The notes under the pieces were generated by a model, which was not told where the DNA came from, searched no databases, and was given only the letters and a program-made list of their open reading frames with translations. From the IMG/VR virus record IMGVR_UViG_2675903429_000012: a stretch of DNA of 4,546 nucleotides. The stretch is one strand, 5' to 3'. The position numbers and the translations under genes were made by a program. Shown piece by piece: positions 4,093 through 4,205 of the stretch. Origin of the DNA: a virus (Duplodnaviria > Heunggongvirae > Uroviricota > Caudoviricetes). Every line of letters begins with the position of its first letter. Position 1 is the stretch's first letter.

Positions 4093-4113
4093 TCTTCCTC
4101 TTCCTCTTCCTCT
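4093..4113. repeat. Hexanucleotide tandem repeat (TCTTCC) x3.5, encoding a poly-Glu stretch in the initiator linker frame
   Basis: Direct observation: tcttcctcttcctcttcctct. Confidence 0.8.
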
Positions 4114-4114
4114 G

Positions 4115-4205
4115 GTAACGCTTTTTGATCCGTTTGTGTAACGCTGGCAGCGTTACCTTTTCGTTTCAGTTCGCGTATTTTTGTTACTCGCTCGTTTGTA
4201 ACCGC
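4115..4205. repeat. Iteron-like repeat cluster, candidate phage origin inside the initiator gene: perfect 19-bp palindrome GTAACGCTGGCAGCGTTAC (4138-4156) plus further GTAACGCT / CGTTTGT(G)TAAC(C)GC copies
   Basis: GTAACGCT occurs at 4115-4122 and 4138-4145, and inverted at 4149-4156. CGTTTGTGTAACGC (4131-4144) and CGTTTGTAACCGC (4193-4205) are near-identical. The location mirrors ori-lambda inside the O linker. Confidence 0.3.

Follow-up and report, generated by a model that had tools for sequence, protein, structure and literature searches.

Conserved palindromes within the initiator gene of a Rac-like prophage as a candidate phage replication origin

A decayed initiator gene in a Rac-like replication module

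The stretch of DNA analyzed here (4,546 nt of IMG/VR virus record IMGVR_UViG_2675903429_000012; hereafter, the window) carries on its minus strand the replication module of a Rac-like prophage, with the gene order initiator, ydaV, a DUF977 winged-helix gene, a zinc-ribbon gene, queH and hokD. The initiator gene (3745–4423, minus strand) belongs to the family phrog_2509 and is laid out as a predicted wHTH-like N-domain, a linker and a DnaT-like C-domain. A preliminary description of this DNA had proposed a phage origin inside an initiator gene, and that setting was read correctly, although the window copy proved to be a pseudogene, damaged in three places. At nt ~102 the gene is interrupted by IS600, of which the window contains the left end and the first part of the transposase gene (MSRKTQRYSKEFKAEAVRTV; 4424–4546, plus strand); the insertion cuts off the first ~102 nt of the initiator and everything upstream. 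The remaining reading frame is broken by a +2 frameshift in a T8 run (4209–4216; T6 in intact homologs) and by a second frameshift, a 10-bp deletion at 4071–4072 in which one copy of AGGGGGATTT was lost. The same truncated and frameshifted allele is present in another IMG/VR contig (L060), and its closest protein matches are named Shigella flexneri and Shigella sonnei. Intact homologs are 262 aa long, as in phage vB_EcoS-666R9 (hereafter 666R9) and a prophage of E. coli FDAARGOS_944, the latter sharing 98% DNA identity with the window copy.

The DnaC-like gene described beside the initiator was confirmed as ydaV (3109–3738, minus strand), which encodes a DnaC/IstB-like helicase loader. Its middle is masked by 257 N at 3119–3375, including the stretch after the Walker A motif (GKPGTGKNHLAAAI...). 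Between ydaV and queH, two small genes (2202–2615 and 2616–3038, both minus strand) encode the DUF977 winged-helix and zinc-ribbon proteins; at the corresponding position, intact phage 666R9 instead carries YdaW and LygF-type genes, so that this is another mosaic joint. Prophage cargo lies 3′ of the replication module, consisting of queH (epoxyqueuosine reductase; 1368–2054, minus strand) and a hokD-type toxin gene (985–1197, minus strand).

The initiator combines a predicted winged-helix-like domain with a DnaT-like domain

An intact 262-aa homolog matched the phrog_2509 "replication initiation protein" profile over its full length (residues 1–262, E 1.2e-89). No Pfam family was matched by this homolog at E ≤ 0.01, including the N-terminal domain of lambda O (Phage_rep_O), and the N-domain gave no match in Pfam or NCBIfam. 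The PHROG "O-like" family phrog_678 matched the C-terminal part alone (residues 77–236), and the C-domain corresponds in both sequence and fold to the DnaT ssDNA-binding domain (PF17948 / PDB 4ou6). AlphaFold2 was run on P0017, an intact homolog sharing 81% identity over the N-terminal query. In this model, the N-domain (pLDDT 82–95) consists of helices followed by a beta-hairpin at residues 84–91, suggesting a winged-helix-like fold, with a single weak loop at residues 50–56 (pLDDT <50). Linker residues 123–152 are disordered (pLDDT <50) and the C-domain was modeled with confidence.

Two palindromes of identical design lie within the initiator gene

The preliminary description placed a dense set of repeats between 4093 and 4205, and all of its elements were recovered. 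The 19-bp perfect palindrome GTAACGCTGGCAGCGTTAC (9+1+9 nt) is found at 4138–4156, with an extra copy of GGTAACGCT at 4114–4122, 23 bp from its left arm. A (TCTTCC)x3.5 tandem repeat occupies 4093–4113 (100% match), and two CGTTTGT units, CGTTTGTGTAACGC (4131–4144) and CGTTTGTAACCGC (4193–4205), are separated by 62 bp. The span was drawn too short, however, missing a second palindrome of identical design at 4347–4365, and the CGTTT tracts and the TCTTCC array counted among the repeats are present without being iterons. The functional unit is instead the palindrome GTAACGC-N5-GCGTTAC together with single half-sites 11–12 or 23 bp away.

The first palindrome, site S2 (4138–4156; GTAACGC-TGGCA-GCGTTAC), lies, as claimed, in interdomain-linker codons (GNAASVT in the intact frame), which belong to the disordered linker of the AlphaFold2 model. 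It is accompanied by an extra half-site GTAACGC (4115–4121, plus strand) 23 bp, or ~two helical turns, from its left arm, with a counterpart at gene nt 403 in Rac-type homologs. Not all of the element is confined to the linker, however. Site S1 (4347–4365; GTAACGC-CGCGA-GCGTTAC) falls in codons of the low-confidence N-domain loop (CNARGVT), and intact relatives have a third site upstream of the ATG. S1 extends to TTGTAACGC/GCGTTACAA (4345–4367) and has a degenerate half-site GTAATGC 12 bp away (4371–4377, minus strand), which is an exact GTAACGC in phage 666R9. Since S1 occupies weak-loop codons and S2 linker codons, both intragenic sites are located where the protein is least constrained. Copies of a dyad-symmetric site within the initiator gene at the interdomain linker, as expected for an intragenic origin, are thus represented by S2 and the 4115 half-site, and S1 also lies within the gene.

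GTAACGC occurs six times in the window, five of them within 4115–4365, compared with a mean of 0.45 copies in whole-window shuffles, none of which (0/200) reached six. The only copy outside the initiator gene, a lone GTAACGC at 2245–2251 in the zinc-ribbon gene, is consistent with chance. Enrichment of CGTTTKT was weak (5 observed, 2.05 expected; 13/200 shuffles reached five). CGTTT tracts were rejected as an independent iteron family, being explained by A-rich Lys/Arg codons and degenerate half-sites. The unit at 4193–4205, which reads GCGGTTACAAACG on the coding strand and overlaps the conserved protein motif KKRAVTNER, may be one such degenerate half-site, an assignment we make weakly.

Synonymous codons of one intact gene were permuted 5000 times with the protein kept. 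Permuted genes contained 1.6 GTAACGC on average, with at least five copies in 23/5000, and at least two perfect palindromes with 7-nt arms and a 5-nt spacer in 56/5000, a moderately significant result (p about 0.005–0.01). As permuted genes still yield GTAACGC, the amino-acid sequence accounts for part of the motif, which weakens this single-gene permutation and leaves the argument to rest on the comparative evidence that follows.

The sites are conserved at the DNA level among homologs

Homologous genes were collected from annotated phages and IMG/VR contigs, giving 71 unique enteric sequences (protein identity 43–99% over the collected loci) and, across a wider taxonomic range, 31 representatives at <80% identity. 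Conservation of the repeats in initiator genes of related phages, the check on which the preliminary description staked its reading, was strong in both sets. Among the enteric homologs, the perfect form GTAACGC-N5-GCGTTAC is found at S1 (gene nt 149 or 161) in 71/71, and S2 (gene nt 358–380) is present in 70/71 and perfect in 68 of these 70. A third copy (≤2 mismatches) is found 30–43 bp upstream of the ATG in about 41/71; in the window, IS600 has removed or displaced this upstream site. S1 and S2 are spaced by 207–209 bp, and half-sites within a cluster are 11–12 bp apart in both direct and inverted orientations. At the genome scale, the 38.7-kb phage 666R9 contains exactly three full palindromes, at −32, +161 and +368 from the initiator ATG, and the 39.6-kb phage ZX5 exactly two, both within the initiator gene; GCGTTAC is the most clustered 7-mer in either genome.

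Across the 71 homologs, information content is maximal in the arms and almost absent from the five central bases, and the residues encoded by the sites differ. The ZX5/TL-2011b lineage translates S2 as VTPTALQ, in a different frame from the GNAASVT of the Rac lineage, with identical DNA arms. Third-codon positions within the S1 arms are invariant in 59/59 unique sequences, compared with a mean major-allele frequency of 0.60 and no invariant position among 48 conserved background codons. As the arms and their synonymous positions are invariant while the encoded residues and frame vary, the constraint acts on DNA and not on protein.

These observations bear on whether the repeats might be a coding by-product with no DNA-level role, arising from a repeated peptide (e.g., GNAxSVT) or from low-complexity linker codons. 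The GTAACGC copies that survive protein-keeping permutation and the TCTTCC array, which does consist of poly-Glu codons of variable length, are what such an origin would produce. It would account neither for S2 being kept in two reading frames, nor for invariant synonymous sites in arms whose spacer residues are free to vary, nor for the same motif in non-coding DNA upstream of the ATG, and we regard this explanation as largely refuted already and extremely improbable.

Signals acting in RNA or transcription were also considered, either an antisense intrinsic terminator on the plus strand formed by 4138–4156 and CTTTTCGTTT, or an mRNA hairpin. The palindromes do fold at −13.5 to −15.9 kcal/mol (z-scores −1.9 to −3.3), and a consensus scan flagged 4138–4156 as terminator-like on the plus strand, but this was the only such site where 0.8 were expected by chance, and the T-run is neither conserved in the homologs at S2 nor present at S1. 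The intrinsic terminator was rejected on these grounds. A hairpin would likewise leave unexplained the unpaired direct half-sites 11–12 bp apart, which cannot form hairpins, and the fact that within a lineage the arm sequence itself, not merely its pairing, is invariant. RNA-level explanations as a whole are very improbable.

An AT-richer, purine-skewed tract follows the linker sites

GC content falls to 41–46% at 4050–4250 of the window, where the plus strand is strongly T-rich. In the mean of 30 representatives, AT excess peaks at +0.11 over the mean at gene nt 405–420, directly 3′ of the linker sites (cluster B), where the coding strand is 74% purine; the tract is modest, about 11 points above the gene mean. 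Its equivalent in the window is the (TCTTCC)n array with its flanks. The array (4093–4113) adjoins cluster B and reads (GAGGAA)n on the coding strand, providing poly-Glu linker codons, and its length differs between otherwise close homologs, from 4 to about 10 Glu (EEEE to E10; window compared with loci L024, L027, L048, L060 and L086–L088). For these reasons it was rejected as a binding repeat or iteron and kept as part of the AT-rich, purine-skewed tract, which is a candidate unwinding region. Distant lineages have (AGAGA)n encoding REEKRREE in place of (GAGGAA)n, the purine tract being kept whatever it encodes.

Motif and N-domain change together between lineages

The 31 representatives come from enterics, Pseudomonas, Xanthomonas, Vibrio, Ralstonia and metagenomes, and span several proteobacterial classes. 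In each of them, the top non-trivial hexamer between −100 and +540 is concentrated almost wholly in the same two clusters, at nt 120–215 and nt 320–440 (55–101 and 334–369 in epsilon15 types). The hexamer itself depends on the lineage (TAACGC, TCACGC, TGTCAC, GTAGAC or GTCCGC), and all copies change together. Two further properties looked for in an intragenic origin, DNA-level conservation beyond coding need and co-variation with the DNA-binding domain of the initiator, were therefore both found.

A natural exchange of the same region is provided by K-12 Rac. Compared with Rac-like phages, its ydaT is 92% identical and its ydaV and the C-terminal third of its initiator are 96% identical, whereas the N-domain and linker form an unrelated cassette of ~495 bp (DUF1376). 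This cassette has repeats of its own, TGTTCAA at −21, 149 and 360–453 and five copies of TTGAACATCTGC, from which it follows that repeats travel with the N-domain and not with the rest of the module. The linker is the mosaic junction at which homology between K-12 Rac and Rac-like phages breaks. Overall, the sites are real, constrained at the DNA level, specific to the initiator gene and co-varying between lineages.

Junctions of this kind leave room for a different binder, such as a host- or phage-encoded factor that travels with the module, with the sites serving packaging, partition or recombination at the mosaic joint; the initiator is, after all, assigned as the likely binder from sequence comparison. 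Against this, the initiator is the only gene common to all loci examined, its neighbors being different (DnaC-like, DnaB-like or DUF1064 genes downstream, different repressors or cII-like genes upstream), and it is the N-domain cassette, not the flanks, that the motif follows when it changes. Occurrence of the same motif in hosts of different classes also argues against a host-specific factor. We consider a factor other than the initiator distinctly unlikely.

A proposed initiator-binding origin and its relation to known systems

The reading we favor, from comparative sequence evidence, is that the palindromes and half-sites are probably binding sites for initiator dimers and constitute the origin of a Rac-like temperate phage. 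Dimers of the phage's own initiator would bind the palindromes through their N-terminal winged-helix-like domains. Intact relatives have three groups of sites, spaced about 190–210 bp from one another: one ~30–40 bp upstream of the ATG, one (cluster A) in codons of the flexible N-domain loop, and one (cluster B) in codons of the disordered linker. The AT-richer, purine-skewed tract after cluster B would then melt, and, on the model of lambda O/P, host DnaB would be loaded by the bound initiator acting through its DnaT-like C-domain together with DnaC-like YdaV, encoded next door. Three steps are inferred here: binding by the initiator, melting of the region, and the start of replication at this place; a literature search on the initiator family returned no binding or replication data for any member. 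The earlier proposal of a phage origin is thus supported by the comparative evidence, with replication function as an inferred property and with the qualification that the window holds a relic, as IS600 interrupts its initiator, which also has two frameshifts. With this initiator broken, firing of the element would require a related initiator acting in trans.

The upstream copy makes a regulatory reading a serious, if partial, rival. The palindromes might be operators for autoregulation or transcriptional roadblocks, bound by the initiator or by another regulator of the module and perhaps looping ~200 bp, with the origin elsewhere (e.g., in ydaV). Rep dimers of iteron plasmids typically use palindromic operators. 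One site lies 30–43 bp upstream of the ATG in about 41/71 homologs, a placement that would also suit autoregulation, and the S1–S2 spacing of 207–209 bp is close to 20 helical turns. However, phages of the ZX5 type keep both intragenic sites without an exact upstream copy, and three to five phased half-sites followed by an AT-richer, purine-skewed tract are more origin-like than operator-like. Operator and origin functions are also compatible with each other. As a replacement for the initiator-binding origin this reading is fairly unlikely, and its weight falls mainly on the upstream copy.

The proposed origin shares several features with ori-lambda: in lambdoid phages, the central part of gene O holds both the iterons bound by O and an AT-rich tract (PMC7466680). 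As in lambda, 933W and P27, the gene for the initiator itself contains the dyad-symmetric candidate sites, at its interdomain-linker codons; a tract that is AT-richer and strand-asymmetric comes next; sites and N-terminal DNA-binding domain move as one specificity cassette; and a helicase-loader gene adjoins. In contrast to lambda O, the initiator lacks a Pfam lambda-O N-terminal match and its C-domain is DnaT-like. The arrangement of sites differs as well. Lambdoid origins have four to six adjacent iterons (four of 19 bp in ori-lambda), whereas here 19-bp palindromes form two to three clusters ~190–210 bp apart, one in the region coding for the DNA-binding domain and one upstream of the gene. 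Each cluster comprises one full palindrome and one to three half-sites, so that no single array of at least four adjacent ~19-bp iterons was found.

A resemblance to iteron origins of Rep-type plasmids is suggested by the modeled winged-helix-like initiator domain and by short repeated sites about one helical turn apart, as well as by a palindromic copy near the gene start. Rep-type plasmids carry 17–22-bp direct repeats, however, in place of which the present system has intragenic 7-nt half-sites in mixed orientation. The C-domain is related to E. coli DnaT (primosomal protein I), sharing its ssDNA-binding fold and the ...NTVS.PD..IPPGFRG tail, but DnaT lacks a sequence-specific origin-binding N-domain and works in PriA-dependent restart of replication, not at an origin.

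We also make the tentative suggestion, to which we give slightly less than an even chance, that the widespread phrog_2509 initiators of temperate phages of Gamma- and Betaproteobacteria use a previously undescribed type of split origin. Such an origin would consist of two to three clusters of phased 7-nt half-sites ~200 bp apart, one of them in disordered-loop codons of the initiator's own DNA-binding domain, and the DnaT-like domain would recruit helicase via the restart machinery. With the sites embedded in loop codons, a change of site (TAACGC to TCACGC) would then also change the amino acids of the loop (GNA to GHA).

Relation to oriJ and natural systems for origin function

Rac has been reported to have an active origin, oriJ (PMC3945230). 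The product of the "oriJ" PCR primers of De Paepe et al. 2014 is a 155-bp stretch of ydaV and not of ydaU (PMC3945230, supplement; 3589–3743 of the K-12 Rac locus, L003), a point in favor of an origin in ydaV in the operator reading. No multi-copy repeat family was found in the ydaV stretch under these primers, which argues against an origin there. This stretch was accordingly not accepted as a mapped origin; the primers came without mapping data. Literature searches on oriJ, ydaU and ydaV found no sequence-level mapping of oriJ, the ydaV primers being the only coordinates, and no oriJ feature is annotated in NC_000913.3.

The K-12 Rac oriJ module (ydaU-ydaV) is of the same prophage type and gene order as the module in the window, with ydaT, ydaV and the C-terminal third of the initiator 92–96% identical. 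YdaU differs from the window initiator in its unrelated DUF1376 N-domain and linker and in its repeats (TGTTCAA/TTGAACATCTGC), which are found at the same relative positions (−21, ~149 and 360–453) as the GTAACGC sites of the Rac-like initiator. This correspondence suggests, at the level of repeat positions, that oriJ may lie inside ydaU. Within K-12 ydaU (4007–4864 of the same locus, in particular 4406–4477 and 4625–4721), the five copies of TTGAACATCTGC are joined by an inverted repeat, ATGTTCAAACA.

If confirmed, the initiator-binding origin would locate, at the sequence level, the origin of Rac-like and epsilon15-like (Uetakevirus) temperate phages and of numerous prophages in E. coli, Shigella, Klebsiella, Salmonella, Pseudomonas, Xanthomonas, Vibrio and Ralstonia. 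The initiators of these phages currently bear no more specific label than "hypothetical", "primosomal protein I" or "DNA replication domain protein". The case would also illustrate clearly, from nature, how an initiator and its sites can evolve together as a single exchangeable cassette, and the heptamer would predict origin specificity and incompatibility between co-resident prophages. Practical weight is small for the window itself, a decayed remnant in an IS-ridden prophage, probably of Shigella. A search of PLSDB identified only two plasmids with the initiator gene, the 41-kb plasmid of Pusillimonas sp. T7-7 and E. coli pE16EC1016-8. Each record resembles a circularly maintained phage genome and contains TAACGC clusters A and B, making these two phage-like plasmids possible natural systems for origin function.
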